From an uncultured delta proteobacterium (GTDB lineage Bacteria > Desulfobacterota > Binatia > UBA9968), in NCBI GenBank assembly GCA_963771465.1, contig CAVYTU010000015.1:480001-544000 (forward strand): a stretch of 64,000 nt of DNA, written 5' to 3'. The position numbers were made by a program, and so were the translations under genes. Shown here piece by piece: positions 2,443 to 52,488 of this stretch. The notes beneath the pieces were generated by a model. The model worked only from the letters and a program-made list of their open reading frames with translations. It was not told where the DNA came from and ran no database searches. Position 1 is the stretch's first letter; each line of letters starts with the position of its first letter.

Positions 2443-2458
2443 AGCAACGCAGATGCCA
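2443..2458 (-). promoter_or_regulatory. sigma54 (-24/-12) promoter for flhG-fliA
   Basis: Minus strand TGGCAT-CTGCG-TTGCT (GG-N10-GC). Confidence 0.8.
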
Positions 2459-2738
2459 TCGGCTAGCACTTGAAAATTATTGAAGATTTCGAAGTTGAGC
2501 GGGGAATTTACCAATGGGCAGCGTCAATAAATCCAACCATGGCGTCAGTAAATTGGCGCTGCGAAGGGTTAACAACGGCTCGCCGCCAGGCAATCGGATA
2601 ACCGCGGCACTGTGTGATTTAATGGAGGCTAGTAGAGAAACTTTTCGACAGTTTGGACTCTTTACAACAATCTTGGGAACATGGCGCAACACTTCGAAGT
2701 CATCGAGCTTGAGAAGCATCAAGTCGAGGGAGGCTAAC

Positions 2739-2754
2739 CGCAAAGCGAGTGCCA
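2739..2754 (-). promoter_or_regulatory. sigma54 (-24/-12) promoter with no clear intact ORF immediately downstream
   Basis: Minus strand TGGCAC-TCGCT-TTGCG. Confidence 0.6.
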
Positions 2755-2945
2755 CCAAACCCTTGAAAGGATCGTGGCAAGAGACTCTGCTAGCACAAAA
2801 GGATCGCAGCTTGAAAGTAAAAGCGGTGATGAGAGTTTAGCGCAGGCCCAATTGTTGTGCGGAGAACTTAGAACGTTCGCAAAGCGTCAAAGTCGTCTTT
2901 GATGCTGGCGTCGCCGCTGGCTTCGCGGCAGGCCGCCGCTCGCCC

Positions 2946-4956
2946 CTAGGCCTTGGCCAATTCTTCTACCTTAATTGGCTTGCTCAAGTAGTCGTCCATG
3001 CCGACGCCGAGATAACGTTCACGGTCGCCTCGTAGCGCGTTGGCCGTCAACGCGATGATCCACGGACGTTGCTCGCCGAATTGATCTCTGATTTTGGCAG
3101 TCGCTTGCACCCCGTCCATCTCCGGCATCTGCACATCCATCAGCACCACATCATAACTTTGCCGCCCCACTGCATCCACCGCTTCTTTGCCGTTCGACGC
3201 GACATCGGCCCGATATCCCATCCGATCGAGAATCTTGAGCGCCACTTTCTGATTGACCACGTTGTCTTCGGCCAGCAAGATACGCAAAGGATGATTCGCC
3301 CCAATACTTTGATCGACCACCGTCTTCACCTTCACCGCTTCACTCGACCGAGCGCCAAAAACCGATAGGGCGTCCAATAGCTGCGCCTCCTTCACCGGCT
3401 TGGTTAGCACCGCGTCGAATAGATCGACCATGATCTCGCGCCGTCCCATCGAACTCAGCATGATCAGCGGCAGCGATCGGCAATCTTGCAGAGTGCGTAT
3501 CTTGGTTGCCAACTCCACACCATCCATCGCGGGCATCTGCATGTCGAGTATCGCTACGTCGAACTTGTCGTTACTCGCCAAAATCGCTAACGCTTCCACG
3601 CCCGACGCCACTGCAACCGCGCTCATCCCTTGGGATTCCAGTTGGTGCTTGAGAATCCTTCGGTTCACCGCTAGATCATCGACCACCAAGGTGCGTTTGC
3701 CTTGAGTTCCGAGCGATCGGTGATGGGTCGCAGCGCGCGTTCTTCCTTACTGACGATGGTAAAAGAGAACGTCGATCCCTTTCCCTCTTCGCTCTGGACC
3801 CAAATCCTGCCGCCCATCAACTCGACTAACTGCTTGGAGATCGCCAAGCCAAGACCCGTGCCGCCGTACACGCGCGTGGTCGAGGAGTCGACTTGGCTGA
3901 ATGATTTAAACAGCCGGTCCATGCGCTCCGCGGAGGATGCCGATGCCGGTGTCCTTGACCGAGAAAGTGATTTCAAGATTGCCGTTGCTCTGCTCGGCAC
4001 CGCGTTTCACTTCGATCAGCACCATCCCTTCAGGCGTAAATTTCACCGCGTTGTTGGTCAGGTTGACCAACACCTGGCGCACCCGGGCGAGATCGCCCAG
4101 CACGCCCCACGGCACAGTCGGATCGATCGCGTAAACCAGCTCGATATTTTTCTCCGTCGCCCGCGGCAACACCAGATCGGCGGTCTCTTCGATGCATTGA
4201 CGGATATCGAACGCTGCGCGCTCGACCACCAATTCCCCGCTTCGATCTTGGAAAAATCCAAAATGTCGTTGATCAGATCCAACAGAGCGTTGCCACCGTT
4301 GCGGATGGTATCGACGAATTCGCATTGTTCGCTATTCAAATCTGTATCGAGCAGCAAACCCGTCGTGCCGATCACAGCATTCATCGGCGTGCGAATCTCA
4401 TGGCTCATGTTCGCCAAAAAATCGCTCTTGGCTCGGGTCGCCGCCTCCGCGACATCTTTCGCTTGCGCCAATTGTTTGGTCTGCTCCAGACTTTGCTCGT
4501 AGAGCTGCGCGTGGTGGATCGCGACCGCCAACTGGCCAGCGAGAACATGCACAAACTCCAGCTCTTCCTGAGTGACTTTGCCTTCCTGGGTTGTCGCCAG
4601 TGACAAGACTCCGATCACCGAATCTCTGTTTGACAGCGGCACACCGACGTACCATGACAAATTGTGGCGGCGGTAGTATTCAGGAATGGCACAGCTGGGT
4701 CATTTGCCGCATCCGTGATCAAAACGGCTTGCTTACTATCGACGACCGACTGGGCGAAGCTGGCCTTTTTTTCGCCCACGAATAACGGGCCGTGGTCCTC
4801 ACCAAACAGATCATGCGAAGCTTCGAGTTCAAGTTCGCCGGTGTTTTGATTGACCAACCGGATCGTCGACAGCGCCGAGAACGACAGGTAGGATTCAATT
4901 CTTTTTAATACCAGGTCGAGAATTTCATCCAACCTTAAGCTTAGTTTCATCGCCAA
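2946..4956 (-). CDS. Hybrid sensor histidine kinase (GAF-HisKA-HATPase-REC-REC), split by several frameshifts
   Basis: ORF pieces give a GAF domain (4615..4956, 4058..4660), H-box [15 protein letters not shown]-box [15 protein letters not shown] boxes DTGIG and GGTGLGL, and two REC domains (2946..3689). Confidence 0.88.
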
Positions 4957-5049
4957 TCTTTTGCTCGATGTGATCGCCGCCGCAGGGAAGTTTTTTGACC
5001 GTTGTTGATGCGCATGAGCCTAAGGCTTGAGCTAACCCATGCGCCGGAC

Positions 5050-6018
5050 CTAGGCTTTTCGGAGCTCCACCGCGCCGGGTGCGGGGACAAGCCACTCGAC
5101 ACGGTTTCGCCCCAGTTCCTTGGCGTGGTACAGCGCCCTATCCGCCGCGACAATAAGCGCTTCAGAATCTCGCACCTCGCCCATTGTCGTCGCGCTCACG
5201 CCGAAACTAGCGCTAACTTCGATCGGCCCGCTCGAAGATTGAACCGGCGTGGAGCAAAGGTTGCTCCGCACGCGCTCGGCGAGTTTGAACGTCTCGGCCA
5301 AATCACAGTTGGCCGCGACAATCAGAAATTCCTCGCCGCCGTAACGGCCCACTCTGTCATAGGGGCGGATGGACTCGGTCAGCCGCTTGGCCACCTCCTG
5401 TAAGACTTCATCGCCGCGCGCGTGGCCCAAGGTATCGTTAATCCGTTTGAAATGATCGATGTCCAGCAAGATCACGCCAACTGGACTGCGCTCGCGCTCG
5501 GTACGCGCCAATTCCTCCTGGAGACGCGCGAGCACGATTCTACGGTTCCACAAACCGGTCAGCGAATCGCGATCGGCCAAGATCTGCAGCTGCGCTTGGG
5601 CCGCCAACAGTTCACGTTGCAAGTCCAGAATGCGCCGCCCCGCCCGCAGCCGCGCGTTAAGTTCGGCGGGTTTGAACGGCTTGGTCATGTAATCGTCGGC
5701 GCCCGCTTCTATTCCTTTCACCAAGTGGTCGAGTGTGTCCATGCCCGTAAGCAAGATCACGTAGACGTAGACCGCATCCTTGCGCGCGCGCAGCTTGTGG
5801 CAGATATCGACTCCCGTCATGCCCGGCATCATCCAGTCAAGTATCGCAATCTCGGGGGCGTTGGGTTGCTCCAATACCGACCAGGCCTGGTCGCCGTCCT
5901 CCGCGACCTCGACCCGATAGTCGAGCCGGGTCAGGCCCGACAGCAGCAGCGTGCGCATTATCGAGTCATCGTCGGCAATAAGTATTTTCATGTTCGGCTG
6001 ATTTGTCGGAACAATCAC
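5050..6018 (-). CDS. Response regulator diguanylate cyclase (REC-GGDEF, PleD/WspR-like)
   Basis: N-terminal REC (ILIADDD...ILDWMMPG...KPF), DSLTGLWNRR, I-site RPYD and active site GGEEF. Confidence 0.93.
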   Translation of the reverse strand: MIVPTNQPNMKILIADDDSIMRTLLLSGLTRLDYRVEVAEDGDQAWSVLEQPNAPEIAILDWMMPGMTGVDICHKLRARKDAVYVYVILLTGMDTLDHLVKGIEAGADDYMTKPFKPAELNARLRAGRRILDLQRELLAAQAQLQILADRDSLTGLWNRRIVLARLQEELARTERERSPVGVILLDIDHFKRINDTLGHARGDEVLQEVAKRLTESIRPYDRVGRYGGEEFLIVAANCDLAETFKLAERVRSNLCSTPVQSSSGPIEVSASFGVSATTMGEVRDSEALIVAADRALYHAKELGRNRVEWLVPAPGAVELRKA

Positions 6019-6060: not shown

Positions 6061-6400
6061 TTATCGCTCGTGGGCGATGAATTGGTTGGTCGCCGCGATG
6101 ACGCGCACGTCGACTTCGACGCCGTGATCGCTGCCCACCGGTTCGAATTGGCGCTCCTGCAGCACACGCAGCAATTTCACTTGCAGTTTGGGACTCAATT
6201 CGCCGATCTCATCGAGAAACAGCGTGCCGCGGTGGGCGAGCTGAAAGCGCCCTGGCGGGCATTGACCGGTAAACGCGCCGCGCACGTGGCCGAATAGTTC
6301 GCTCTCCAATAACTCTTCGGGAATCGCGCCGCAGTTGACCGGTACAAAAGATTGATCGCGGCGCAGACTCAGGTCGTGAATCGAGTCAACCATGATAGTA
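6061..6400 (-). pseudogene. Internal fragment of a sigma54-dependent activator AAA+ domain (FleQ/FlrA-like)
   Basis: [27 protein letters not shown]...[26 protein letters not shown]...[10 protein letters not shown]. Walker A, the C-terminal half and the HTH are missing, and GAFTGA is disrupted. Confidence 0.8.
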
Positions 6401-6547
6401 ACCGAGCAGGCAGCCGTAGCCAAAAGTTAGCAGCCGTTCAACCCATATTGTGTAGCTGAAATTCAATCAGCGCGTGAGCCCAGATCCTGCCGTAGTGAAG
6501 CCAATGAGCCGCTGTCGCTGATTGAAATTAGAACTGCGGAATCCTAC

Positions 6548-7078
6548 TTAAAATTTGGCGTGATCGTGCAGTAACTTGAGTCGCGATTCTATCGTGTCGC
6601 TCAAACTAGCCGCCAGCACGTAATCGGGCATCGGCTCGGGCAATGCACCGAGGCTCGCTAGCCGTCGGTTCAGGGTGGTCAGAAGTTCGTGGCGCTTTTG
6701 ATATTCGTCCATGCGATCGACACAGGTCAGGATGCACCGATCAATTTTCGTTAGACATTCGTTCAGCGCCGCTTGATCGTGCACCGACTGCTCACGTAGT
6801 CGCGCCACTTGCAAGTCGACGACTTGACGCGCGATGGGCTGCACGCGTTGCTCGATCTGGGTTTGCATATCGCGGAGCGCCCGTTGCAAGCGGCCGTAAA
6901 CTTGATCATCTCCGGAAGGTTGCGGCGCGGCTTCGGTTACCGGCGCGGCCGGATCCGGGGTGGACGATTCGCTCCGGCTTAGCGACCCGAGAACGGAATG
7001 AATGCTAGAAATTTTTTCCAGCACCTTGCTTCGGTCGTCTAAGAGGCTTTGCAGTTGCTTGATCGGATCGAGATCCAT
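6548..7078 (-). CDS. Hypothetical coiled-coil protein
   Basis: 176-aa ORF rich in L/Q/E/R heptads, 27 bp downstream of the HTH gene. Confidence 0.6.
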   Translation of the reverse strand: MDLDPIKQLQSLLDDRSKVLEKISSIHSVLGSLSRSESSTPDPAAPVTEAAPQPSGDDQVYGRLQRALRDMQTQIEQRVQPIARQVVDLQVARLREQSVHDQAALNECLTKIDRCILTCVDRMDEYQKRHELLTTLNRRLASLGALPEPMPDYVLAASLSDTIESRLKLLHDHAKF

Positions 7079-7105
7079 CAGTCAACCAGACGGCAACTCG
7101 AACAA

Positions 7106-7327
7106 CTATTTGCCGCCGTTGGCCACGGCGCGCATTTCGCTCTCGCCATTGTCCGCCATGCCCATGGTGCGGCTCGATACCAGCTCCAAAACATCGTTGC
7201 GGCTAAAACGCCAGCTACGGCCGATGCGGCTACCCGGAATGACGCCTTTTTCAGCAAGCTTGTAAACTGTTTTTAGATGAATCTTCAGAAGCGTTGCGAC
7301 TTCTGAGGGTGTCATGATTTCTTCCAT
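7106..7327 (-). CDS. Excisionase-like / HTH_17 helix-turn-helix DNA-binding protein
   Basis: MTPSEVATLLKIHLKTVYKLAEKGVIPGSRIGRSWRF is a typical HTH_17 pattern; AGGAG RBS upstream. Confidence 0.85.
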   Translation of the reverse strand: MEEIMTPSEVATLLKIHLKTVYKLAEKGVIPGSRIGRSWRFSRNDVLELVSSRTMGMADNGESEMRAVANGGK

Positions 7328-7387
7328 CCGATGTTCTCCTTTTGCTAACTATATTGGCCCGAGGCTACTCATTGCTGGTGGAGAAAC

Positions 7388-7403
7388 AGCAGGTCTCGTG
7401 CCA
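7388..7403 (-). promoter_or_regulatory. sigma54 (-24/-12) promoter for the HTH_17 gene
   Basis: Minus strand TGGCAC-GAGAC-CTGCT. Confidence 0.75.
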
Positions 7404-11276: not shown

Positions 11277-12005
11277 TTAGGCCGCTTTCTCCATCGCCTG
11301 CGCCATTCCGCCAAAGTAAGCGCGGTGAATTTCCATGGATTCTTTCGCGGTGGTGAGCACGTCTTGCTCTCGTCCCGGCGCGACGTACTTCTCCAGTACA
11401 TCGATGAACATGTCCGAGTGTTTCACGTCGGCCTTGCTATGCGCCGTGAAGTTCGGCATCTGCGCGTCGGAGAAATTCAGATCCCGCTGCCAGTTCTTGT
11501 AGAGCCGGGTGCAGTTTCCGCCGCCAAGATCGCCGAGCAAGCGATCGTCATTGGTCCATTCGGCGATCGTCGAAGCGGCGATGGATTCCTGCCAGGCGCG
11601 ATTGCGCGCGATCCACGACCACGCGTAGATCGCCGCCGTGGTCGTCGGCAGCGGCGCGGCGGCGAGAATATCCTCGACACTCAAGCCAACTTCCTTGCCT
11701 TGGCGAAAGATCAGATCGAGGTGGCCGTGCTTGGAGTGTTCGTCTTCGATCAACTCTTCATATTCATGGGACATGATGCGCTGCTTGACATCGAACTCGG
11801 GACAATTCGCCGCTACTTGAGGCCAAAAATCGCGCCGTTTGCGGACGTAGAGACTCAACTGCAAGAGATAAATCTGCGCCCGCCGCTCGGTCATCTTTAC
11901 TGAGTAAAACTGCTCCATCTCGGGCGATTGGAACAAGTCACGCACACATTCGCCCAACTTTTGTCGCCATTCCTGTGGTTTCATGATCGTTCCCTCCATC
12001 GACAA
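11277..12005 (-). CDS. Heme-oxygenase-like diiron protein (CADD/PqqC/TenA-like)
   Basis: Candidate diiron ligands EYEE...GH, AEW and HSKADVKH match the E-H-E-H-D-H arrangement of CADD-type proteins. Confidence 0.75.
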   Translation of the reverse strand: MSMEGTIMKPQEWRQKLGECVRDLFQSPEMEQFYSVKMTERRAQIYLLQLSLYVRKRRDFWPQVAANCPEFDVKQRIMSHEYEELIEDEHSKHGHLDLIFRQGKEVGLSVEDILAAAPLPTTTAAIYAWSWIARNRAWQESIAASTIAEWTNDDRLLGDLGGGNCTRLYKNWQRDLNFSDAQMPNFTAHSKADVKHSDMFIDVLEKYVAPGREQDVLTTAKESMEIHRAYFGGMAQAMEKAA

Positions 12006-12091
12006 TCGATTACATGAATGAAGCGTAACTCAATACTTGGGTTGGTCGTCGGCACAAACCATCTGAAAAGTTTTTGCGCCACGCCCCCGTA

Positions 12092-12121
12092 GACGTAATC
12101 AATCCGCTAATAAATTGTCAA
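12092..12121 (-). promoter_or_regulatory. Possible sigma70-type promoter of the aromatic operon
   Basis: Exact TTGACA (12116..12121, minus strand) with a weak -10 (TTACGT/TACGTC) 17-18 bp downstream. Confidence 0.35.
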
Positions 12122-12720: not shown

Positions 12721-12778
12721 AAATCCTGCATCGCGCACATACTGACTGCCCTGGCTTCAGCTGCCTCCTATTTAGCTA

Positions 12779-42318: not shown

Positions 42319-42432
42319 AAGTATCCTTTGGTGTCGTTGTTTGCATAGTTCGCATCGACGCGCTTTGCTTGACCTGCGCGCAGGGCATGAATAAATCGTG
42401 GTCGAGACCCAACCGGCGGCCGGCGCCAACGT

Positions 42433-42831
42433 TTACGATTTCGCCTTTTCATCTTCGATTAGTTTAAGAACCTTTTCACGTAATCGATCATTGCCATTGA
42501 CGGTTTTATAGAGCGCGGCATAACGTTCCATGGTCAAACCTTCCCGTTCGAGCACCGAACCGAACTTTGCCACCGCCTCTTGCTGTATCCTGGTCTTTTC
42601 CTCCGGCGTCTTTGCGACGCTCACCTGGGGCTCGTAAATCGTCCTCATTTTAAGAAACTCCACGTAGGATTTCGCAAAGGCCTGCAATTCTTGGTCGCTA
42701 ACTTCTGACGACGCGCCGGGAGACTGTTGAGCCGGCGCTTGGGTCTGAGCACAAACGGCCCCAACCGATAGCGGGAGCGAAACCCCAAGCGTCAAGCCAA
42801 GCACCAGAGAATTTGTAAACTGTTTTTTCAT
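42433..42831 (-). CDS. DUF4168-like secreted protein
   Basis: Signal peptide, EVSDQELQAFAKSY...EGLTMERY...NDRLREKV. Confidence 0.8.
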   Translation of the reverse strand: MKKQFTNSLVLGLTLGVSLPLSVGAVCAQTQAPAQQSPGASSEVSDQELQAFAKSYVEFLKMRTIYEPQVSVAKTPEEKTRIQQEAVAKFGSVLEREGLTMERYAALYKTVNGNDRLREKVLKLIEDEKAKS

Positions 42832-42910
42832 CGCACCTCCACTTGATTAAAAAGTAAACCGAACCATCTCGATTCCACACAAGACGGTTCGGTTCCCGTT
42901 TGAGAATTCG

Positions 42911-42926
42911 AGCAACGGCTATGCCA
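42911..42926 (-). promoter_or_regulatory. sigma54 (-24/-12) promoter
   Basis: Minus strand TGGCAT-AGCCG-TTGCT. Confidence 0.82.
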
Positions 42927-43144
42927 ACCGGGCACGCGCGTCGGTTTCTTGATTTGAAGGTATTTTGAGCAAAAACTGCGCGGCAAATTAGCTGGACTTA
43001 CAGGTGCAATTCATACACCCCAAGAAGAGTTTCCCTTCAGCCCGAACACCGAGTGGGAAGTGATGGCGTGGGTCGAATGAGACGTGAGCCTGGAGTAGTG
43101 AAGAAAGCAACACGGCGGTTGGAGAATCAGGTTATCTGCCGATT

Positions 43145-43680
43145 ACATAATCGTGATGCCTCCTGTTGGTAGCGCCGATGCAAACGCTTTATAATTCGTG
43201 TTTGAGCAAGAAACTGTCCGCTAATCCTCGGCGCTTAATGTCACGGCGAAATCAACCCCGAAAGAATTGAGAATTAGAAACGTGTAAACACGTATCGCGG
43301 TGCGAGTCGCGATTGCACTGGCTTTGCGAACTTCTCGCGCCACGGCGGAGGTTACCTGCTCGACTTTTTCCAGGTCGTTGTTGTAGTGCACCCACAATTG
43401 AACGAGAATCGTCGAGTCAGTATCCCCCGTGTGAAAATTGACAATGTTGTTCTGCACAAGCTTGCTGTTTCTGCGTGTTACGCCAGCCGATGCGCTCCAC
43501 GTAACCTTCTTCCTGTCGAAAGTTTTACGAAATGGCCGACCTGCAGCGGGCGGTCGGCTTTAATGTATAACCCGGCAAAGAGATTGCCCAGCGTGTCTTG
43601 AAGCGCGATCGCGACCGCTAAACTGCCGATCTCTAGCGTAGTCACCGCCGAGATTTAAGGACGATATTGATTCAAATAAA
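43145..43680 (-). pseudogene. Degraded MscS-family mechanosensitive channel
   Basis: IGSLAVAIALQDTLGNLFAGLYIKADRPLQVGHFVKL and VHYNNDLEKVEQVT pieces, interrupted by deletions, stops and frameshifts. Confidence 0.8.
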
Positions 43681-44069
43681 CCCGGATTCAGCCGCTGAAA
43701 TCGCCACTCAGAAGCACAGACCCACCGTCTTCTTCACGACGAAAGGAGCGCGCCCCACTCGCCGATTCAATTTCAACTGCGCAGTCCTCCGGGATGAATA
43801 GTAATTGGCCGATTTCCACCGCGGTAACATTCCATGGGGGAGCGCGTACATGCGCTCGGCATCTTTGAGTGAATTAGCCTTTTGCGATACTGACAGCGCC
43901 GCCAGACCATCATGCATGAGTCACCTTTGCGGTTCGGTCGTGAGCGATTCCAACCCGCTTGGAATGTTATGAACCCATAGGGAAATCCCCTACAGGTTCA
44001 AATGTAGAATACTATCGCTCTGAATACCGGACAGCGTGAAATTTCAATGATTTACACCGGCGAACTGAT

Positions 44070-44085
44070 TGGCACTTCACTTGCT
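44070..44085 (+). promoter_or_regulatory. sigma54 (-24/-12) promoter
   Basis: TGGCAC-TTCAC-TTGCT; IHF-like TTTCAATGATTTA at 44042..44054; palindrome at 43976..43994. Confidence 0.85.
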
Positions 44086-44131
44086 CTAATCAAATGGATG
44101 TCTGGTTTGAAAAGAGGCATCACCACTACCC

Positions 44132-45772
44132 ATGAGCTACAGTCAATTTGAATCACGGCGGGATTCGCCTTTCACCGGTGTTGTCGGTGCGCGTTCGTTT
44201 TTCAAAAGTTCCCATTACCGCGAGGCGCTGGCGACGCTTTACCATGGTGTTGAGACGCGGAAAAAATTAATCCTTTGCACCGGCGAAGCCGGCACGGGTA
44301 AGTCCACGTTGCTGCAACAATTTGCGCTCGAACAAGGTGCCAACGTTAACTGCGTGCTGATCTCCGATCCGCATCTCGGTTTCACCGAGATAATCCGCTC
44401 GATCCTGGGTCAATTACAGGTCGAATCGGCATCGACGGCGGAACCGGCATTGCTCCGACAATGGCTGAAGGTGATGCGTTTAGAGTGTGAATCAGGCCGG
44501 ATCATTTGCCTGGCTTTCGATGATGCGCATCATTTGCACGACCGAGTGCTCGAAAAGATATTGCACGAGTTTATCGGAGTGAACCCGGTAGACTCGCAGA
44601 AACATTTCGCGCAGGTCATCTTGGCGGGACGGCCAAAACTGAAAGACAGATTATTTCGACCGCCGCTCGGATCGCTCGGTTCGTTGCTGCTGGGTAGCGA
44701 GTGTCGATTGGCGGTACTGAACGACAAAGAAATAGGCGAGTATATTGAACATCAGCTGCGCGCCGCCGATCTACCGGTGGACCTCTTCGGCCACGAGGCG
44801 ATCCAACGCATCGCCGTTTATTCGGGCGGCAACCTGCACCATGTCAATGTCTTATGCGACCGCCTTTTCCAGGCAACCGGCGCTTCGTTAAAACGGCAGA
44901 TTTCAGTTGCCGCGATTGAAACAGCAGCGCAAGATCTCAACCTTTGGCAGCCTCGCTGGACTAGCATGGAAAAGCCGACAAAGGATTTTACCTTACCGAA
45001 GGAACGAGACGAACCTTTTGGTTTCACGCTCGACGACAACGACACGACGGAAGCCGTGGGCCAAACATTCATGAATTATAGCGACGACAGCAGTCCGACC
45101 CAATCACTTTTGTCGCGGAACGGACATGGTCGGCGAATTTCGATATGGGTGATTCTCATCGCGCTTGTGGGAGCGGGCGCATGGTGGCAAGGCAATCAGG
45201 TGGAAGACCGTCGTGATAGCTCTGACAACAATAAAAAGTATGAAGCTGTGCGCTCGGATTATTTGCCATTCTCGGCTCCGACAAATGCCGACCGAAAAAC
45301 CGATTCCGTAGCCCAGGAGTTGGAACCCAACACGCTGCCCCCGGATAGCAAACTTTCTCCTCCTCCACCAGCGGGTGAGGCGGAGGACAAAAACCAAGTA
45401 GCTTCCCTACCGGAGACCGGCAAACAGAGCGAGCCGCCAACCGCCGCCGCGCCACGACAAAACCCGCCGATTGCGAAGCCCGATCCCGCGCCAAAAAAAG
45501 TTACTCCAGCGGTGAAACAGAAAGGGCCCGAGAGTCATCCGCCAGCTCCTATCGAAAACGCCGAAATCCGCAGAAAGCGTCTAGAAATAGAAGTTGCCAA
45601 GGCGATCGAAAACCGGGCCATTGCCGGCGTCGCTGTCGCGGTGATCGACGAAATCATTTTTCTCGACGGGCGAGTCGCCACCGAGAGACAGCGAGCCGCC
45701 GCGGAACTAGCCGCGCGCAGCGTCGCCGGCGTCGAAAAAGTGCGCAATCGCATCGGCGTCAATGTCAGCTAA
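44132..45772 (+). CDS. ExeA/GspA-like AAA ATPase with TM helix, Pro-rich linker and C-terminal BON domain
   Basis: HYREALATLYHG, Walker A GEAGTGKS, LAFDDAH, QVILAGRP, SGGN...NVLCD; C-terminal IFLDGRVATERQRAAAELAARSVAGVEKVRNRIGV. Confidence 0.82.
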   Translation: MSYSQFESRRDSPFTGVVGARSFFKSSHYREALATLYHGVETRKKLILCTGEAGTGKSTLLQQFALEQGANVNCVLISDPHLGFTEIIRSILGQLQVESASTAEPALLRQWLKVMRLECESGRIICLAFDDAHHLHDRVLEKILHEFIGVNPVDSQKHFAQVILAGRPKLKDRLFRPPLGSLGSLLLGSECRLAVLNDKEIGEYIEHQLRAADLPVDLFGHEAIQRIAVYSGGNLHHVNVLCDRLFQATGASLKRQISVAAIETAAQDLNLWQPRWTSMEKPTKDFTLPKERDEPFGFTLDDNDTTEAVGQTFMNYSDDSSPTQSLLSRNGHGRRISIWVILIALVGAGAWWQGNQVEDRRDSSDNNKKYEAVRSDYLPFSAPTNADRKTDSVAQELEPNTLPPDSKLSPPPPAGEAEDKNQVASLPETGKQSEPPTAAAPRQNPPIAKPDPAPKKVTPAVKQKGPESHPPAPIENAEIRRKRLEIEVAKAIENRAIAGVAVAVIDEIIFLDGRVATERQRAAAELAARSVAGVEKVRNRIGVNVS

Positions 45773-45775
45773 AAC

Positions 45776-47758
45776 TTAAACCCGGATTCTAGCCGGTGAC
45801 CCGTAGGAGCCGGGTCTTGGCTTCGTCAGATCTGGGAACCATGGACTGACCCCCTGATCGATGAAAAGCCGGTGCCAGATTTCGAACGTTAGCAGTGCCC
45901 ATAAACGATGACCATGGTCGCGTTTGCCGCTCATGTGCTCACCGACGAGCGTTCGAACCACGGGCTCTCGGAAGTAACCGCGTTGCAACGCCTCCGGCGA
46001 CAGAATCGTGTCGCAGAGAAAATCTTTTAAGCCAGCGCGAAACCAGCGTCCCACGGGTACGCCAAAGCCATGCTTTTTGCGCCGGACAATTTCGCGCGGC
46101 AAGATCCCTTCGAAGGCACGCTTTAGAATGTAATTCGTCGTCATGCCTTTAAGCTTGAGTTGTGACGGAATTTTACTGGCGCGCGCGAGCAGTTGATCGT
46201 CGAGAAAAGGACAGCGCGCTTCGAGCGAGTTAGCCATCGTCATGCGATCCATCTTGACCAGTGAATCGCTCGCCATGTTTAACGTTAGCAGTTGAGCGAT
46301 TGGATTGGCGGCTTGGCGCGCATCGAAATAGCCACGAAGGTGACCGGCTGTATCGATCTCAGTGGAGTCGAGCAAAAGCTCGTGTAAAAAGTCGGGCTTG
46401 AAAATGCCGACCCATTCCAGATAGCGCTCGGGCAAAGGCAGCGACGCCCTCTCGACAAATTGGCGCGCGCGGCGCACAAGCCCAAAGTACGACGTGGATT
46501 CCGGCAACGCGTGAACGAGCCGGCTGACCGCGCCGCGCAAAATCGGCGGCGTGCGCCGATGAAACTCCGCCATACGCGCGGCGGCAAATCGCTCATAGCC
46601 CACGAAAAGCTCATCGCCGCCGTCGCCGGTGAGTGCAACCTTGACATGCTCACGCGCGAGTTGCGCGACGTAATAGATCGGCAGCGCCGAAGAGTCGGCG
46701 AAGGGTTGGTCGTAGTGCCAAACGAGCTTCGGCAAAAGTTCAATGACGTCGGGTTTGACTATGAACTCGTGATGATCGGCGCCGAACTGCTGCGCCACCA
46801 GCCGCGCGTATTTCAATTCGTTGAACGAAGGTTCGTCGGCAAAGCCGATGGCAAACGTGCTGACGGAGTGACCGAGCAATCGCGTCATGACTGCGACGAC
46901 TGCCGCCGAATCGATTTCGCCGCTGAGAAAAGCACCCAGCGGCACATCGCTCACCAGACGAGACCTGACCGCATCTTCGAAATGGGCGCGCACTTCGTGG
47001 AAATACTCCGCCTCGGAGTGCACCGGCTCGATGACAGGATCGCGCGGTAGCTCCCAATACCGGCTGACGCTCACACTGCCATCTTCGACAATCGCCGTGT
47101 GGCCCGGCGCCAGCTCGTAAATATCCTCGAAAAAAGTCGCAGGGGACGGCACGTAGCCGTAGGTGAAATAAAGCGGCACGACGGCGCGATTGACCCGCGG
47201 GCGCACGCCAGGATGCGCCAAGATGGCCTTGATCTCAGAGCCAAAAATGAGCTGTTCCTCGTCGAGGAAATAAAAGAGCGGCTTCTCGCCGACTCGATCT
47301 CGCGCCAAAAATAAACGAGCGGATGGCGCCGTAGCCTTGCCTTGATGGCCATTCGCCCTTCGACGATCGCAGATGGCGAACGCGAACATGCCGCGCAACC
47401 GGCGCACACAATCGAAGCCCCATTCTTCGTAAGCGCGTAGAATCACCTCCGCGTCGGATCGGGTGCGAAAATGGCAGCCGCGGCCTTTGAGTGCGTCGCG
47501 CAGCTCCTTGACGTTGTAAATTTCGCCGTTGAAAACGATCCAACAATCTTCCGCTTCGTTGGCGATCGGTTGCTGGCCGCCTTCGATGTCGATGATGCTG
47601 AGCCGAGTCATGCCTAGCACCGCGTCATCGAAAACCACTGCGCCGCGGTCGTCGGGGCCGCGATGCGTCAGCGAGGCGTTCATCGGCTCGAACCAAGCTG
47701 TCGAGGTTTGAATGTCGATTTTGCCGTTGAGTTGAATCCAGCCGCAGATACCAGACAT
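45776..47758 (-). CDS. Asparagine synthase (glutamine-hydrolysing) AsnB-like amidotransferase with degenerate catalytic motifs
   Basis: HRGPD, RLSIID, FNGEIYN, ARDRVG.KP, DVPLGAFLS, TGDGGDELF.GY, RKKHGF; but the N-terminus is MSGICG and the PP-loop is SGEIDS. Confidence 0.85.
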   Translation of the reverse strand: MSGICGWIQLNGKIDIQTSTAWFEPMNASLTHRGPDDRGAVVFDDAVLGMTRLSIIDIEGGQQPIANEAEDCWIVFNGEIYNVKELRDALKGRGCHFRTRSDAEVILRAYEEWGFDCVRRLRGMFAFAICDRRRANGHQGKATAPSARLFLARDRVGEKPLFYFLDEEQLIFGSEIKAILAHPGVRPRVNRAVVPLYFTYGYVPSPATFFEDIYELAPGHTAIVEDGSVSVSRYWELPRDPVIEPVHSEAEYFHEVRAHFEDAVRSRLVSDVPLGAFLSGEIDSAAVVAVMTRLLGHSVSTFAIGFADEPSFNELKYARLVAQQFGADHHEFIVKPDVIELLPKLVWHYDQPFADSSALPIYYVAQLAREHVKVALTGDGGDELFVGYERFAAARMAEFHRRTPPILRGAVSRLVHALPESTSYFGLVRRARQFVERASLPLPERYLEWVGIFKPDFLHELLLDSTEIDTAGHLRGYFDARQAANPIAQLLTLNMASDSLVKMDRMTMANSLEARCPFLDDQLLARASKIPSQLKLKGMTTNYILKRAFEGILPREIVRRKKHGFGVPVGRWFRAGLKDFLCDTILSPEALQRGYFREPVVRTLVGEHMSGKRDHGHRLWALLTFEIWHRLFIDQGVSPWFPDLTKPRPGSYGSPARIRV

Positions 47759-48183
47759 GATTTTCCGATCCTCCGTGGGCTCCGTCAATTACGCCAACCA
47801 GCGGAGAACTGAGATTTTGCCGCAGGCTTTGCAGTAACAGCGACGTAGTCGCGCCACATTCATACGAGCTTGCTATTCTCTTGATATTTCGGATTTGTTT
47901 TTTCTTACTAATTTGTTCCGCGACATTGCCATCACCTACGCGCAGTTCGGCGCGGCATTTCCTCCCCGTGAAGCGAAAAAACTCATCTGAGATCGACGGC
48001 AGAGAATTGGAATTGGTCGAACATTGAGTTGATCAAAAAACTGAAGTGATTTGAGCCCGTGTTGGTGGACTCGGCGAGACTACGCGAAATACCCCCGGTG
48101 GGCTTCATACGCCACCGAGCCAAGGCGCGTTGCCGCCTTTTTGATCGGGCATTGCCGGCAATTCTGAGAATTGCGACAGCGGA

Positions 48184-48348
48184 TCAATGCCAACTTTTAG
48201 AAATCGGCTCGGTATTATGAAAAAGGTCCGATAGGATATAGGCGACTAGAATATTTGCCGCCTTTTCATCATGCACATGCCGGGAGGTTTCTTCAGTCAA
48301 TGCTACGATCAGCTCTCCCAAAGTAGTCTCGCCATTCTCTCGTTCCAT
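48184..48348 (-). CDS. 54-aa hypothetical protein, not in ORF track; paralog of 15903..16079
   Basis: MERENGETTLGELIVALTEETSRHVHDEKAANILVAYILSDLFHNTEPISKSWH*; AGGAGG RBS. Confidence 0.75.
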   Translation of the reverse strand: MERENGETTLGELIVALTEETSRHVHDEKAANILVAYILSDLFHNTEPISKSWH

Positions 48349-48478
48349 GTCCGGCCTCCTGGTAGATTTGCGTGCCTTATTTACGCCGCGTCACTGCCAA
48401 CAAGAACTGTGAAGATGGCTGCGACTCCTGGTATTTTTTGCGATTCATCGAGCTACTTTCTCACTTTCGCGCCATGAC

Positions 48479-48835
48479 TCATGAAATTTGAAATCCAAGT
48501 ATGATAGATTCCAGTTTCATACCTGGTTCAGCGTGAAGCTTGACGATACGACCCGGAGAGTCCACGGCTATGAAGGCGGTGGGACTACCCACGATACAAT
48601 CGCCAGCGGTGCACACACTGGGATAAATCACCACGGCAAACAATCCCTTCGCGGGATTTTGAAGCACGGTCGCGATGTAGCCATCTTGGACCGCGCTTAC
48701 CGCGCCCTCGACAAATTCAAAGTCGCTCAGAAATCTCCAAGGGTTTTCCTCTTGAGCATGCAATGGCGATCGATCTAATAATAGGATGGCAACAACGATA
48801 AGCGCGGAACCAATTTTTATTAAACGAGAGTGCAT
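48479..48835 (-). CDS. Secreted hypothetical protein
   Basis: Probable start MHSRLIKIG, signal peptide ending LHA-QEE; downstream of a sigma54 promoter. Confidence 0.6.
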   Translation of the reverse strand: MHSRLIKIGSALIVVAILLLDRSPLHAQEENPWRFLSDFEFVEGAVSAVQDGYIATVLQNPAKGLFAVVIYPSVCTAGDCIVGSPTAFIAVDSPGRIVKLHAEPGMKLESIILGFQIS

Positions 48836-48965
48836 GACAAAAGCTCCATCCGTTCTCCAAGAGCGAAAAATCCAAAAAATCTGACGTCCTCGGCTTTGTC
48901 TCACATGCTGCGAAACTTGGTCTTCCGCGTTCGTGCTCGCAAAGAATTTTTCGGATTCTATTGAG

Positions 48966-48981
48966 CGCAAAGCTCGTGCCA
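48966..48981 (-). promoter_or_regulatory. sigma54 (-24/-12) promoter
   Basis: Minus strand TGGCAC-GAGCT-TTGCG. Confidence 0.82.
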
Positions 48982-49209
48982 AATAATCCCTCGTTGCATA
49001 ACTGTTGATTCCAGTGCGAATTTTGGCATTACTCGATGATGCAGCCAAAGCTCTTGGAGGAATTCTCCCTAAAAAAATAGGAAACTGGAGGAATTTTGAA
49101 TTTTGATAATTTTTAACCTGGATTCCGCGGTTGGAGTCGGTTGCTTATTGCGTCTTCACCACGGAAGCCGTGCGTCGCACTCACCAAGCTACTAACGCGA
49201 CCTACCAGA

Positions 49210-49467
49210 TCAGGAAGCCGCCGCGATGGGTTTGAGATTGTTAGACGGCGCTACGATCTCTGCGAAGTCGTGTTCATCAAGCCACAGCTTATCGCCATCG
49301 ATGCCGCCTCCCGGATAGCGTTCGTCAAATTGCACCAGCCATCTTCTTTTTTGTCCCTGGCTTTGCTCGTCTATTACCAATCCGGTTTGATTGGCGCGTA
49401 GGCCATGATTCGGTGAGATCGTCACACGAGCCCAGACACTGACAGTGCTTTTTTCCTTGGTGTTCAT
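49210..49467 (-). CDS. Small hypothetical protein (beta-rich, possibly SH3-like)
   Basis: 85-aa ORF with AGGAGG RBS and its own sigma54 promoter. Confidence 0.65.
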   Translation of the reverse strand: MNTKEKSTVSVWARVTISPNHGLRANQTGLVIDEQSQGQKRRWLVQFDERYPGGGIDGDKLWLDEHDFAEIVAPSNNLKPIAAAS

Positions 49468-49523
49468 TTCAGGCCTCCTGACATGCCATCAGCGCTACTT
49501 CACAATGACTGAAGACATGAAAA

Positions 49524-49539
49524 GGCAAGCAGCGTGCCA
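49524..49539 (-). promoter_or_regulatory. sigma54 (-24/-12) promoter
   Basis: Minus strand TGGCAC-GCTGC-TTGCC. Confidence 0.75.
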
Positions 49540-49714
49540 TGCTAACCAGGACAACGCTCGTGTATTTTTCAAGGAATTTATGTGGCTGAAGTTATGAAAA
49601 TCCCGTCTTGAAGGGAATGTCCGTACAATCCCGCCGCTCGAGTACCGGGAAGGTCATTGCTGGGGACCCGGGACCTTTGCAGTTTTACCTCCCGCAGTCC
49701 CTCTGAATCCTACC

Positions 49715-50122
49715 TTACTGAAATGGAATGATTTCAGTAAACCCGGCCACTGACACCACTGTCTCGTATTGACCGTCCGTCCGAACCGTCGATGTCGTAC
49801 CTTGTCGATAAGTGAAAGGTATGGCCGCGCCAGCAGGTATCGTTTTTTCTACCGTGTAATACGAAGCCGTTCCCAACTCGTCGCTTCCCGGGTGGAACTC
49901 GTTCTTCCAATGCCAGATGTGTCGGACAAGCAACTCCACGTTTCGAACGTCACGGCGCGAACGATTCACAATCTCGCCGGATACAACGCTATCGCGGAAC
50001 GCCAGGTTGCGAACCTCGATACTTTCAGCGGACTGTTTCACCGATACGAGCGGCTGCGCGGCGCTGGCCGATGCCGACGCTAATACCAACGTCAAGCCGA
50101 TTAGTAGAGTGCGACATTTCAT
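49715..50122 (-). CDS. Secreted hypothetical protein (Ig-like beta sandwich inferred)
   Basis: Signal peptide ASASA-AQ; VSGEIVNRS...VRNVELLV. Confidence 0.7.
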   Translation of the reverse strand: MKCRTLLIGLTLVLASASASAAQPLVSVKQSAESIEVRNLAFRDSVVSGEIVNRSRRDVRNVELLVRHIWHWKNEFHPGSDELGTASYYTVEKTIPAGAAIPFTYRQGTTSTVRTDGQYETVVSVAGFTEIIPFQ

Positions 50123-50155
50123 AAAAGACTCTCTCGCTTCGCTTTCCTGGTTGCC

Positions 50156-50201
50156 GTGGCGCCGCAGCAGCGCGTTTACTATTACCCCGCTGCGGCGCCA
50201 C
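50156..50201. repeat. Intergenic inverted repeat
   Basis: 13-bp perfect stem GTGGCGCCGCAGC / GCTGCGGCGCCAC with no U-tract. Confidence 0.7.
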
Positions 50202-50249
50202 CACCCTCATCTAATGCGCCTAATGCGCCATGATAATTGCCCTAATTTA

Positions 50250-50606
50250 TCAATATTCCCCGCGCTCGCGTCTTAAGCGCTCAGTCTCACGACGCTGCCG
50301 ATCGATCTCAGCCTGATTGCGGTTGATCTGTTCCTGTTGCCGGTAGTTTGTATTCTCCTGTCCCTGGAGTTGGTCGCCAACCAACGCGCCCGCGCCGAGT
50401 CCTAGGCCGCCACCGATCGCGGCGCCCGCTCCAGGGTGGCCAACGGCACTGCCGACGATGCCTCCCACCGCGGCTCCGCCAAGGGCACCTATCCCTGCGC
50501 CTTTCTCTCTCGTCGTCAACGACCCACCGGCACAACCGGCACCGATTAGAGTCACGCCAAGAATTGACGCTGTAATGAAGTTTCTACCGATGTTCTTGTT
50601 GTTCAT
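50250..50606 (-). CDS. Glycine-zipper lipoprotein
   Basis: Lipobox GAGC, GAGIGALGGAAVGGIVG...GAAIGGGLGLGAGALVGDQ, coiled-coil tail. Confidence 0.85.
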   Translation of the reverse strand: MNNKNIGRNFITASILGVTLIGAGCAGGSLTTREKGAGIGALGGAAVGGIVGSAVGHPGAGAAIGGGLGLGAGALVGDQLQGQENTNYRQQEQINRNQAEIDRQRRETERLRRERGEY

Positions 50607-50834
50607 AAATCTCCCTTCGTTACTGTAATGTAGTTTTCGCGCTCAACCCTATTCCCGACTTCCTGATTCGGGAAATCTCCTGTTCGCCTATGGAAGAAAT
50701 GCGTTGCAATTTTGCGTTTTCAAATTTCCCCTCCTTCTGACTGACTAACTGAAATAGGTAGTTGGCCAACCTCCAGACCAACTCCTAATTCTAGTCGCCC
50801 CGTAAATATTCCGGAAGCGGCTAACACTAAGTAG

Positions 50835-50850
50835 CGCAAGCTGCATGCCA
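50835..50850 (-). promoter_or_regulatory. sigma54 (-24/-12) promoter
   Basis: Minus strand TGGCAT-GCAGC-TTGCG. Confidence 0.8.
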
Positions 50851-51064
50851 ATCGTTAATGGTTGTTTCTAAAGAAGTTTTCGCCAGGCCGATGTTGGGAA
50901 TTTCCTCCGGGAAAGGAATTTCCGTACGTGGGTTAGAAAATTTTCATGGCGCTGCTGCGAAAACTCTCTGAATGATCGATGTCCAGCCTCACTCTGACGG
51001 GAACGCGCGCGATACCGTGATACTAAAAACAATTAATCGCTAGTAATTCCGAAATAGCCAAGGT

Positions 51065-51694
51065 TCATGTTTTCTGTTTTTTCACAGGCGCGTCGAACTG
51101 CTTTTCCTTCATCTTGCTCAAAAGATCTTCGTAGGAAGACTTTGCGATAACGCGGTTGAATTGAGAACGGTAGTTATTAATCACGCTGACGTTCTCAAGC
51201 ACCACGTCGTAAACTTTCCATCCGCCGTCGGCCTGATGAAGTTTGTATTCGACGGCGAACTCCTCACCTTTTTTCGTCATGACTTTGCTGGTGACATCCG
51301 CAAAGGTTTTGTCCTGGGTGTCTTTAACGATGACCACTTTCTCACCGTTATAGGACTCGATCGAGTCCAGATAAGCCCCTTCAACAAGTTCAGTGAACAG
51401 CTCGACAAATTTTTTCTGTTCCTCAGGGCTTCTGCGCTGCCAGTGCGAGCCGAGTGAACGCTTGGCCATCTCGGCGAAGTCGAATTTAGGGTTAATGACG
51501 GCCCTAAGCTTACTGCGGCGATCTTTTTGCTTATCCGGGCCCTTCAAATTAGGATCCTGAATTATTGCCAACACACTCTCGACCGTGGCGCGCATCTCAT
51601 CGCCCGGAACTCCGGCTGTAACAGGCACCGCCACCGCCAGGTAAATGATTCCAAGCACCGGCACCCACCATTTGCGCGTAAGAATTCGCTTCAT
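51065..51694 (-). CDS. mlaC: MlaC/Ttg2D-family phospholipid-binding periplasmic protein
   Basis: FDFAEMAKRSLGSHW, WKVYDVVLENVSVINNYRSQF. Confidence 0.9.
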   Translation of the reverse strand: MKRILTRKWWVPVLGIIYLAVAVPVTAGVPGDEMRATVESVLAIIQDPNLKGPDKQKDRRSKLRAVINPKFDFAEMAKRSLGSHWQRRSPEEQKKFVELFTELVEGAYLDSIESYNGEKVVIVKDTQDKTFADVTSKVMTKKGEEFAVEYKLHQADGGWKVYDVVLENVSVINNYRSQFNRVIAKSSYEDLLSKMKEKQFDAPVKKQKT

Positions 51695-51793
51695 TTTTAA
51701 ACCTCTTATCGTTCCGGCCGCATGTCCGACTGTGCGGTTCATGAGAATTCGCCGTTTGCCGAAAAACCAATTCGTTTCCCAACGGGTCGGATG

Positions 51794-51809
51794 AGCAAGC
51801 GAGGTGCCA
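51794..51809 (-). promoter_or_regulatory. sigma54 (-24/-12) promoter
   Basis: Minus strand TGGCAC-CTCGC-TTGCT. Confidence 0.85.
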
Positions 51810-51956
51810 GGGATAATAAAGCGCTACGTCCCTGAATTTGAAGATATTTCGAAAAAGCCCAGCTCATGCAGGGATCTCGAACAAGAGTTTTTCATACAAA
51901 TAGAAGGAATTTCTCATTCATTGGATTTCGTGATTTTCTCGGTTATTTGCAGCCAT

Positions 51957-52430
51957 TTATTCTTTAACGGATTCATGGAAGCCATTAATTTTTCCGCGCC
52001 ATCCGCCGGTTTCTCCACCGCGCGTTTCAATAAACTCTTTGAAACGCTGCAGATCTTCCTGCACGCGATTTGATGCGATGCCCAATTTATCACCCGTTTC
52101 TTCGAGAAACGTTTCCGGCTCGTAATCAATACGCAAAACGACTCGAGTGACAGAGTCGTTCACCGGATTGAAGGAAACGATCCCGTTGCGCACTGGACCT
52201 CTAGCGCCGTACCAAGCTATTCTTTTATCTGGCACCTGTTCCGATATCTCAGCGTCCCACTCCACCTTAACCCCAGCGATTTTAGCCACCCAATGGAGGC
52301 CTGTTTCGTCGAGCTGTTGGACGCTTTCAATATTTTCCATGAATTTGGGAAATTCTTCGAACTGCGTCCATTGATTGTAGACAGCTCGTACAGGAACATT
52401 GACATCAATATATTTTTTTATCGATTTCAT
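51957..52430 (-). CDS. SRPBCC / polyketide-cyclase family protein
   Basis: IDVNVPVRAVYNQWTQFEEFPKFM...EWDAEISEQVPDKRIAW...DLQRFKEFIETRGGETGGWRG. Confidence 0.9.
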   Translation of the reverse strand: MKSIKKYIDVNVPVRAVYNQWTQFEEFPKFMENIESVQQLDETGLHWVAKIAGVKVEWDAEISEQVPDKRIAWYGARGPVRNGIVSFNPVNDSVTRVVLRIDYEPETFLEETGDKLGIASNRVQEDLQRFKEFIETRGGETGGWRGKINGFHESVKE

Positions 52431-52472
52431 GCTGGATCTCCGCAACGACAGATCTGCTAATACAGAAAATCG

Positions 52473-52488
52473 AGCAAAGCCGATGCCA
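52473..52488 (-). promoter_or_regulatory. sigma54 (-24/-12) promoter
   Basis: Minus strand TGGCAT-CGGCT-TTGCT. Confidence 0.82.

Follow-up and report, generated by a model that had tools for sequence, protein, structure and literature searches.

General stress responses are textbook cases of control by alternative sigma factors of the sigma-70 family. The 64,000-nucleotide stretch analysed here (the window, positions 480001-544000 of contig C15 of an uncultured delta proteobacterium whose genome, G000, comprises 6.9 Mb in 19 contigs with a G+C content of 0.556) raises the question of whether genes of this type can be governed by sigma-54 instead. A first-pass annotation of the window had listed 17 motifs of the -24/-12 type and had read them as a physically clustered general stress or dormancy regulon, run by sigma-54 together with an enhancer-binding protein. 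We confirm the observation itself, 17 clustered and intergenic motifs; the interpretation is partly supported. In our view, most units of small survival-type genes in the gene island to which the window belongs probably stand on genuine sigma-54 promoters, many of them fired by the island's own NtrC-family activator, with parallel modules elsewhere in the genome.

Sigma-54 promoter motifs in the window, the genome and its relatives

We defined as strict sites the sequences matching TGGCAY-N5-TTGC, and counted one-mismatch sites while keeping the GG and GC dinucleotides. All 17 motifs of the first-pass annotation were recovered, none of them more than one base away from the position given there, and 15 keep GG-N10-GC as it had claimed, the two others (16542 and 19838) having GT at -12. 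The window contains 11 strict sites, versus a mean of 0.36 and a maximum of 2 in 100 dinucleotide-preserving shuffles. Three further sites have one mismatch, either C or G for the first T of TTGC (7389 and 14725) or TGGTAT (36115), and one, at 12780, has two (TGGAAT...CTGC). The annotation had also held that all motifs become intergenic once start codons are corrected. In our hand-curated gene map, 17 of 17 were indeed intergenic and pointed towards the following gene of their own strand, including the 14 sites with at most one mismatch, and the shorter start codons required for this placement are mostly preceded by Shine-Dalgarno-like motifs. The distance of about 40-260 bp to the gene, from which only the site at 2740 had been excepted, stood for 15 of the 17 sites (43-262 nucleotides (nt) from the -12 element to the start codon), with two exceptions, 2740 (473 nt to flhG) and 41407 (476 nt to a Metallophos gene).

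Genome-wide, 119 strict sites were found, of which 108 were intergenic, against 2-12 intergenic matches for four control patterns that were composition-matched or reversed. Half-sites separated by N4 or N6 had 24 and 17 matches in the genome, with 4 and 6 of them intergenic, versus 119 and 108 for N5. One-mismatch sites keeping GG and GC were intergenic in 182 of 638 cases, and the TGGTAY variant in 30 of 39. The genome encodes one rpoN (a single Sigma54_DBD match, E=4e-63) and GAFTGA-bearing activators, the sigma-54 interaction domain (Sigma54_activat) giving 35 matches, 22 of them full length. The spacing, the intergenic position, the orientation and the presence of this machinery support the view that the motifs of the window behave as genuine sigma-54 promoters, as far as sequence can tell.

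The strict sites are also unevenly distributed. The richest 64 kb contain 14 strict intergenic sites. When the sites were scattered at random over intergenic DNA in 2000 simulations, this maximum averaged 5.3 and never exceeded 10, so that none of the 2000 reached 14. Three islands hold 42 of the 108 strict intergenic sites in 3.4% of the genome: C15:480-575 kb (17 strict sites in about 95 kb, the window being its left two thirds), C13:150-242 kb (19 strict sites, with its own response-regulator activator at C13:153626-154978) and C13:375-425 kb (6 strict sites). What the window shows is thus a part of one island among several. The reading of the first-pass annotation presupposed an rpoN gene, a site density above the genome background and physical clustering, and all three were borne out.

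We scanned 52 genes located downstream of sites in the rest of the C15 island and in the C13 islands. They encode CsbD (2), BON (3), a Dps-like ferritin, DUF3309, YflT (2), BrkB/YihY, DUF1003, pairs of CBS domains (4), Usp (2), a fusion of a hibernation-promoting factor (HPF) with a cold-shock domain, a metallothionein, DUF892, PG_binding_1 (3), UDG, Metallophos and hemerythrin, as well as two further response-regulator activators, each behind its own sigma-54 site. Among 64 genes scanned downstream of sites outside the islands were classic sigma-54 targets, namely an ammonium transporter (Amt), a P-II protein (glnB-like), nitrite/sulfite reductase, KdpA, an NMT1-type binding protein, acetate kinase, phosphofructokinase, polysaccharide glycosyltransferases, SLT-LysM and bactofilin, in addition to more Usp, glycine-zipper, BON and metallothionein genes. 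Sigma-54 thus appears to have its usual jobs in this genome plus a large stress-type set concentrated in the islands.

The promoters are partly conserved in relatives, another point that the first-pass annotation had put forward for checking. Taking the first genes of the window's stress-type units and their orthologues (at least 40% identity) in four congeneric genomes (G014, G015, G004 and G003), we obtained 17 gene-genome pairs, 9 of which show a strict or one-mismatch site in the 400 nt upstream. Unusual variants were retained as well: the TGTGC variant of the PRC gene in G014, the TTTGT variant of the BON lipoprotein in G014 and G003 (67-68 nt from the gene), the TTTGT (-12 GT) variant of a 74-amino-acid (aa) lipoprotein in G015, and the two-mismatch TGGAAT...CTGC variant upstream of the response-regulator orthologue in G003. 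The -24/-12 elements form conserved blocks of the orthologous upstream regions, and their flanks diverge.

The clearest case is the MlaC-like gene of the window, for which we took the best match in each of 30 other genomes of the genus. Twelve of these were counted as likely orthologues (11 at 56% identity or more, and G042 at 52%), and all 11 that were testable have a strict site 51-108 nt upstream, one (57%) being left out as it lies at a contig end. Among the 18 likely paralogues, whose identity is 55% and 54% in two cases and 53% or less in all others, none has a strict site and three have a one-mismatch site. Homologues of the PRC gene, which is sporadic (5 of 61 genomes in the order sample), have strict sites in G032 and in a genome of another genus (G047); none was found before the homologues in G065 and G042 or before the paralogue on C17 of G000. 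The gene set of the C15 island is common within the genus, in rearranged order. These distributions, together with a G+C content of 0.49-0.52 in the gene-poor parts (0.556 in the genome), are the observations that bear on a possible horizontal acquisition of the island.

Counts of the strict motif (with the reversed-pattern control in brackets) were 102 (12) in G014, 91 (21) in G015 and 98 (23) in G004. In other families of the order they were 33 (11) in G019, from a second family, and 9 (11), no more than the control, in G020, from a third, in which we found only 3 strong activator matches. With 91-119 sites in the genus versus 33 and 9 elsewhere, the large regulon is therefore characteristic of the genus or family, and the order as a whole does not share it.

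Of 14 RNA runs found, we compared four, from soil and rhizosphere libraries of three studies, with window positions 36001-56000. They consist of assembled contigs, which carry no starts, strands or levels and in which gaps in cover have no meaning. These contigs cover island genes at 95-100% identity. Near the starts predicted at about 44096, 49513 and 51783, some of them end at 44112 and 44122 (in two studies), at 49517 and at 51762, respectively, and being 4-25 nt off these ends are weak hints. Actual transcription from the predicted sigma-54 sites is inferred.

Candidate activator, kinase and upstream motifs

The window encodes an NtrC-family response-regulator activator (18005-19462, minus strand) with a receiver, an AAA+ domain with GAFTGA and Walker A/B motifs, and a C-terminal helix-turn-helix-like tail. 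Its Pfam matches are Response_reg (1.2e-28), Sigma54_activat (1.1e-72) and AAA_lid_14. HTH_8, present in the C13 paralogues, was not reported for it at E<=0.001, and the C-terminal tail was read by eye. The protein stays below all NCBIfam equivalog cut-offs compared, which included those of ZraR, the PEP-CTERM regulator and others; its best scores were 460.9 for GlrR (cut-off 763), 438 for AtoC (714) and 433 for NtrC (559). Orthologues with 71-83% identity occur in ten genomes of the genus (G014, G018, G005, G016, G006, G015, G004, G003, G017 and G012). Outside the genus, matches are at 49% identity or less in most families, one genus reaching 64-69%, and the closest named relative is from an uncultured Nitrospira (51%). 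The co-occurrence of an activator orthologue with a sigma-54-fronted MlaC-like gene (5 of 10 versus 1 of 7 genomes) was not used, as related genomes are not independent.

We compared 80-100 kb around the activator orthologue in the same four congeners. In G014, G015 and G003 it lies amid the same small genes in a different order, and in G004 only the secreted 118-aa gene adjoins it. A sensor histidine kinase with dCache, PAS, GAF, HisKA and HATPase domains, encoded at 36350-39125 (minus strand) in two frames of the present assembly, directly adjoins the activator orthologue in G015, where it is in one frame, and in G003. This gene is therefore the candidate cognate kinase. The trehalose/glycogen block adjoins the activator in G000 and G014, and in G000 it sits between activator and kinase.

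To search for activator-binding sites, we examined the 260 nt upstream of 29 C15-island sites, with roughly 33,000 8-mers tested. The word AAATTCCT, on either strand, was present in 7 of the 29 regions versus 0.42 expected (P=1.5e-7), and expectation-maximisation started from it led to a 16-bp near-palindrome, GTAGGAAAATTCCTAC. The corresponding matrix reached at least 13 bits in 14 of 26 C15-island promoters, versus 2.1% of 2259 intergenic chunks of 260 bp and 9 of 264 other sigma-54 upstream regions (1/66, 6/152, 1/29 in C13 island A and 1/17 in C13 island B). These counts rule out one shared upstream motif for all sigma-54 promoters. The matrix had been trained on the island itself, which is circular, and the analysis was therefore repeated by leaving one promoter out at a time: 8 of 29 promoters were then at an empirical p<=0.05, versus 1.45 expected (binomial 6.5e-5). 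Judged by these statistics, the C15 upstream signal is real, although it extends to no more than some of the promoters.

Some of the candidate binding sites come in tandem. Two of them, about 21 bp apart at 51882-51918 (minus strand), lie 73-109 nt upstream of the MlaC-like promoter, and both the pair and its position are kept in congeners. GGAAATTCC occurs twice at 50893-50927 (minus strand), upstream of the glycine-zipper promoter. Other single candidate 16-mers of at least 13 bits start at 14849, 16270, 19948, 36225, 41453, 43977, 49056 and 49592. In the orthologous MlaC-like promoters, which had not been used in training, 5 of 11 reach 13 bits versus the background of 2.1% per 260-bp chunk, and the best-scoring copy lies 78-113 nt upstream in 9 of 11. 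When these promoters are anchored at -24, they have little in common except the promoter itself and the tandem pair about 21 bp apart. The activator orthologue of G003 has a strict site and a 17-bit motif in its own upstream region.

A different word, TGTCCCAA, was present in 9 of 54 regions versus 0.36 expected, nearly all of them in C13:150-242 kb. The motif there is TGTCCC-N6-GnGACA, 55-125 nt before the -24 element, with one copy before that island's own activator gene. The two islands thus differ in upstream motif and each has its own response-regulator activator, so that the single regulon under one activator proposed by the first-pass annotation is not supported; several parallel modules are therefore suggested.

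Two observations concern the C13 islands themselves. The island at C13:150-242 kb carries paralogues of window genes, namely the 74-aa lipoprotein, an 85-aa protein and Metallophos. In the other one, an S30AE hibernation-factor domain is fused to a cold-shock domain behind the strict site C13:402015, with two AAATTCC motif copies upstream.

Promoters and genes along the window

Unless stated otherwise, the sites and genes described below are on the minus strand. The strict site 51795-51809 is located 100 nt before the MlaC-like gene (51694-51065), and the strict site 50836-50850 is 229 nt before a glycine-zipper lipoprotein gene (50606-50250). Close to them are the strict sites 52474-52488, 43 nt before a SRPBCC/polyketide-cyclase-like gene (52430-51957), 49525-49539, 57 nt before the gene of the 85-aa protein (49467-49210), whose C13-island paralogue is also behind a strict site, and 48967-48981, 131 nt before the gene of the secreted 118-aa protein (48835-48479), which is kept in G004. 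On the plus strand, the strict site 44070-44084 lies 47 nt before a gene (44132-45772) for an ExeA-like AAA_22 ATPase with a C-terminal BON domain, a protein that matched ExeA-like AAA_22 clusters only in a protein-atlas comparison. The strict site 42912-42926 is 80 nt before a unit of DUF4168 (42831-42433), orf131 (42429-42034) and a single-domain response regulator (42020-41586). No convincing open reading frame (ORF) starts within 300 nt of the strict site 41407-41421, the Metallophos gene of this region being at 40931-40212; a blastn search with its upstream region against the four congeners had the Metallophos coding start of G014 as its sole match.

The TGGTAT variant at 36115-36129 lies 262 nt before the glgB...glgE...treS-mak block (35852-21511). 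A test of its conservation in G014 was discarded as invalid because glgB there has another gene ahead. The two -12 GT variants are at 19838-19852, 43 nt before the 74-aa lipoprotein gene (19794-19570) that is followed by the activator gene, and at 16542-16556 on the plus strand, 70 nt before the gene of the BON-domain lipoprotein (16627-16977). The strict site 16157-16171 is 77 nt before a 58-aa ORF (16079-15903) and a lipoprotein gene (15891-15619), with DUF1328 (15186-15022) further downstream. The one-mismatch site 14725-14739 (TGTGC) is 58 nt before an operon of PRC-barrel (14666-13920), CsbD (13868-13683, located by tblastn) and orf137 (13630-13217), and the two-mismatch site 12780-12794 (TGGAAT-N5-CTGC) is 59 nt before a single-domain response-regulator gene (12720-12331).

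The remaining sites precede other kinds of genes. The strict site 2444-2458 lies 176 nt before the gene of an flhG-like ATPase (2267-1346, in split ORFs), followed by fliA (1349-528), whose product scores above the NCBIfam cut-off for FliA; this unit is flagellar and not of the stress type. No gene is assigned to the strict site 2740-2754; it is perhaps also a promoter of flhG, and the 81-aa ORF behind it has no Pfam match. The one-mismatch site 7389-7403 (CTGC) is 61 nt before an HTH_17 gene (7327-7106), which is followed by orf176 and by a truncated ORF with a Pfam sigma-54 interaction domain (6423-6061). This last ORF, of 120 aa and preceded by the 176-aa one, spans only positions 38-145 of the domain, and split or partial activator domains similar to 6061-7403 were also found at C5:30768-31233, C17:821032-821521 and C17:491019-491386.

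Pfam confirmed PRC, CsbD, DUF1328, BON, TreS-Mak and GlgE among the families that the first-pass annotation had named, and added Gly-zipper, MlaC, SRPBCC and DUF4168; for TreY/TreZ only alpha-amylase, CBM48 and isoamylase pieces were seen. The description of the whole gene set as general stress genes applies to most of the units, which are indeed mostly of general-stress-type families, and fails for the flhG-fliA sites (2444 and 2740) and for the HTH_17/activator-fragment module behind 7389.

Several long genes of the window are broken up, each into 2-4 ORFs that follow one another in different frames. They are the flhG-like gene (1346-2267), glgE (24871-26911), a glgX/isoamylase-like gene (29061-32142), glgB (32591-35852), the sensor kinase gene (36350-39125) and part of the cox region (55158-56279). 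Between the RNA contigs and the window there are 1-nt indels at 38461, 48874, 50150 and elsewhere. The split genes could be either assembly indel errors or pseudogenes. A CdaA-like diadenylate cyclase gene with a DAC domain (20250-21377, plus strand) is divergent from the lipoprotein-activator operon, and this adjacency is kept in G014 (86% identity); a link of c-di-AMP with the sigma-54 module of the window is possible.

Elsewhere in the genome, a family of 49-69-aa proteins with a CxxC...H...H pattern (small-zinc-finger-like) and without Pfam match was found, each directly behind a sigma-54 site (strict at C13:63262, C14:870461 and C15:1219203; also at C1:62350 and C19:41541). Three genes for 53-aa prokaryotic metallothioneins (PF02069) are likewise each behind a strict site, at C13:103878, C13:240784 and C2:4908.

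Interpretation and comparison with known systems

According to the model that we favour, most C15-island units for small envelope, periplasmic and cytoplasmic survival-type proteins would sit behind sigma-54 promoters that stay closed until an upstream-bound AAA+ activator remodels the holoenzyme. The NtrC-family regulator at 18005-19462 would fire many of these promoters from a GTAGGAAAATTCCTAC-like, nearly palindromic site of about 16 bp, frequently present as a tandem pair with a spacing of about 21 bp, that lies 30-125 nt before the -24 element. Phosphorylation of the regulator would be the task of the dCache-PAS-GAF histidine kinase (36350-39125), and the regulator would feed back on itself via the sigma-54 site before the lipoprotein-activator operon. 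On C13, the islands would work as further modules in parallel, equipped with response-regulator activators of their own and with another upstream motif, and the general-stress-like gene set would be spread over several such modules, beside the nitrogen, potassium, flagella and exopolysaccharide targets of sigma-54. The stress families of the islands stand behind one promoter class, which suggests their co-regulation, and at least two upstream motifs point to separate modules. The acting activator and kinase are candidates, and the signal (osmotic, desiccation or starvation) is a guess from gene content.

A number of observations weigh against this model. It is only by their proximity that the activator and the kinase are assigned to their roles as candidates; the reading frame of the kinase gene is broken in two in the window genome, and no orthologue of it was found in the 100 kb around the activator of G014. 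Support for the upstream motif is modest: the leave-one-out analysis upholds it in no more than about 8 of 29 promoters, and the strong promoters 52474, 42912, 7389 and 2740 do not have it. For 8 of the 17 orthologue pairs, the 400 nt upstream yielded neither a strict nor a one-mismatch site, and some of the genes concerned are inside rearranged or other operons. The trehalose/glycogen block is tied to sigma-54 by the single TGGTAT variant at 36115. The ends of RNA contigs give no start-site or expression-level data and could come from DNA carry-over, and the genome-wide intergenic calls were made with our own crude gene caller, which left 16.8% of the genome as non-coding. Finally, the genome has 16 genes of the sigma-70 family, for RpoD, a second RpoD-like sigma (509 aa, C17:915452, below the RpoD and RpoS cut-offs), an RpoH-like sigma above the sigma-32 subfamily cut-off, FliA and 12 ECF-like factors, and the second RpoD-like sigma could also drive island genes from other promoters.

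These sigma factors bear on the alternative closest to the first-pass annotation, a single general stress or dormancy regulon under sigma-54 and one master activator that replaces RpoS, SigB or EcfG. The gene content is typical of general stress regulons, the sites are clustered, and none of the 16 proteins is above the NCBIfam cut-offs for RpoS, SigB or SigB/F/G (EcfG/PhyR was not searched), so that the absence of RpoS and SigB, which the annotation had suggested checking, stands as far as these cut-offs go, with the reservation of the second RpoD-like sigma. We nevertheless consider one master regulon unlikely, given that TGTCCCAA in C13:150-242 kb and AAATTCCT in the C15 island are two different upstream motifs, that at least three response-regulator activators inside the islands lie behind their own sigma-54 sites, that an RpoH-like sigma accompanies the second RpoD-like one, and that sigma-54 also serves nitrogen, potassium, flagellar and polysaccharide genes.

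The sites could also be real but secondary, sigma-70-family promoters giving most of the transcription and sigma-54 a conditional boost or a poised holoenzyme. Five gaps of 176-476 nt (behind 2444, 36115, 41407, 50836 and 2740) could hold other promoters, for which the second RpoD-like sigma would be available, and one RNA contig spans the MlaC-like promoter (51733-51948). Most sites, however, lie 43-131 nt before the start codon, which leaves little room for another promoter, and it is the -24/-12 elements that are the conserved blocks of the orthologous upstream regions; we regard this explanation as improbable. That the motifs are no independent promoters, being scattered copies of a repeat or else random matches in intergenic DNA of higher AT content, is hardly credible. 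The G+C content does fall to 0.49-0.52 at window positions 12000-20000 and 40000-52000, which are rich in small genes and intergenic DNA, versus 0.556 for the genome, but dinucleotide shuffles do not reproduce the sites, neither the control patterns nor the N4 and N6 spacings are enriched in intergenic DNA, and ahead of orthologous genes the sites persist in sequence that has diverged around them. Across the 108 sites, the bases on either side of the motif are almost uninformative, and the sites are therefore not copies of a longer repeat; an extended repeat around them can be ruled out.

If our model of sigma-54 modules is correct, this lineage drives hallmark stress genes from enhancer-dependent promoters that are split over several two-component modules and packed in islands. 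The regulatory logic would be different, without basal leak, with ATP-gated activation and with one sensor kinase per module. For an uncultured soil and rhizosphere lineage with a large genome, the analysis also provides a concrete, testable regulon together with a candidate binding motif, and the promoter catalogue could aid the reading of metatranscriptomes from drying, rewetting or starved soils. One may further speculate that sigma-54 took over the role of RpoS, SigB or EcfG in this lineage, paralogous response-regulator activators with their own motifs and islands making up a general stress or resting-state programme. We put this forward tentatively and with some doubt. The tight off-state of sigma-54 promoters would then suit survival genes, and the rewiring would be marked by the increase in strict sites, which is roughly ten-fold, with about 90-120 of them in the genus versus 33 and 9 in two other families.

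Genome-wide predictions of -24/-12 promoters have been published before. Carrera-Reyna et al. 2025 (PMC12316311) found universal stress proteins (COG0589) enriched among predicted sigma-54 targets in Planctomycetia; the main text of this paper contains neither "Nitrospir" nor "general stress" or "trehalose". Francke et al. 2011 (PMC3162934), predicting such promoters across genomes, tied sigma-54 to the cell exterior, a link in keeping with the large number of lipoproteins and periplasmic proteins found here. In the accessible part of that paper, general stress occurs only for Sigma-B and in two references, Nitrospira in a figure legend and a reference title, and trehalose, glycogen and dormancy do not occur. 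The word "sigma" has no occurrence in the accessible part of PMC12342949. Our full-text literature search returned no account of CsbD, BON or YflT-type general stress genes under sigma-54.

Among known two-component systems, NtrBC, ZraSR, GlrKR and AtoSC resemble the one proposed here in the combination of a receiver, a GAFTGA-bearing AAA+ domain and a C-terminal DNA-binding tail, in the kinase partner, in sites about 100 nt upstream and in likely autoregulation. The activator of the window differs from them in remaining below all equivalog cut-offs, and its predicted targets are dozens of small stress-type genes in islands and not one pathway. In the development of Myxococcus xanthus, a cascade of many activators and sigma-54 promoters governs the entry into a resting state. 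The likeness lies in the many activators and sigma-54 promoters.

The gene families themselves are those of other regulons. CsbD, BON/OsmY, YflT, Dps, Usp, HPF, DUF892 and the trehalose/glycogen families belong to the SigB, RpoS and EcfG regulons. The general stress regulons of SigB in Bacillus, RpoS in Escherichia coli and EcfG/PhyR in Alphaproteobacteria thus have in common with the present islands CsbD, BON/OsmY-like proteins, YflT, Dps-like ferritin, Usp, HPF, DUF892 and the trehalose/glycogen genes. In contrast to these systems, which work by the release or accumulation of a sigma factor, the genes studied here would be controlled at sigma-54 promoters by ATP-dependent activators bound upstream, in several modules and with no one master factor.

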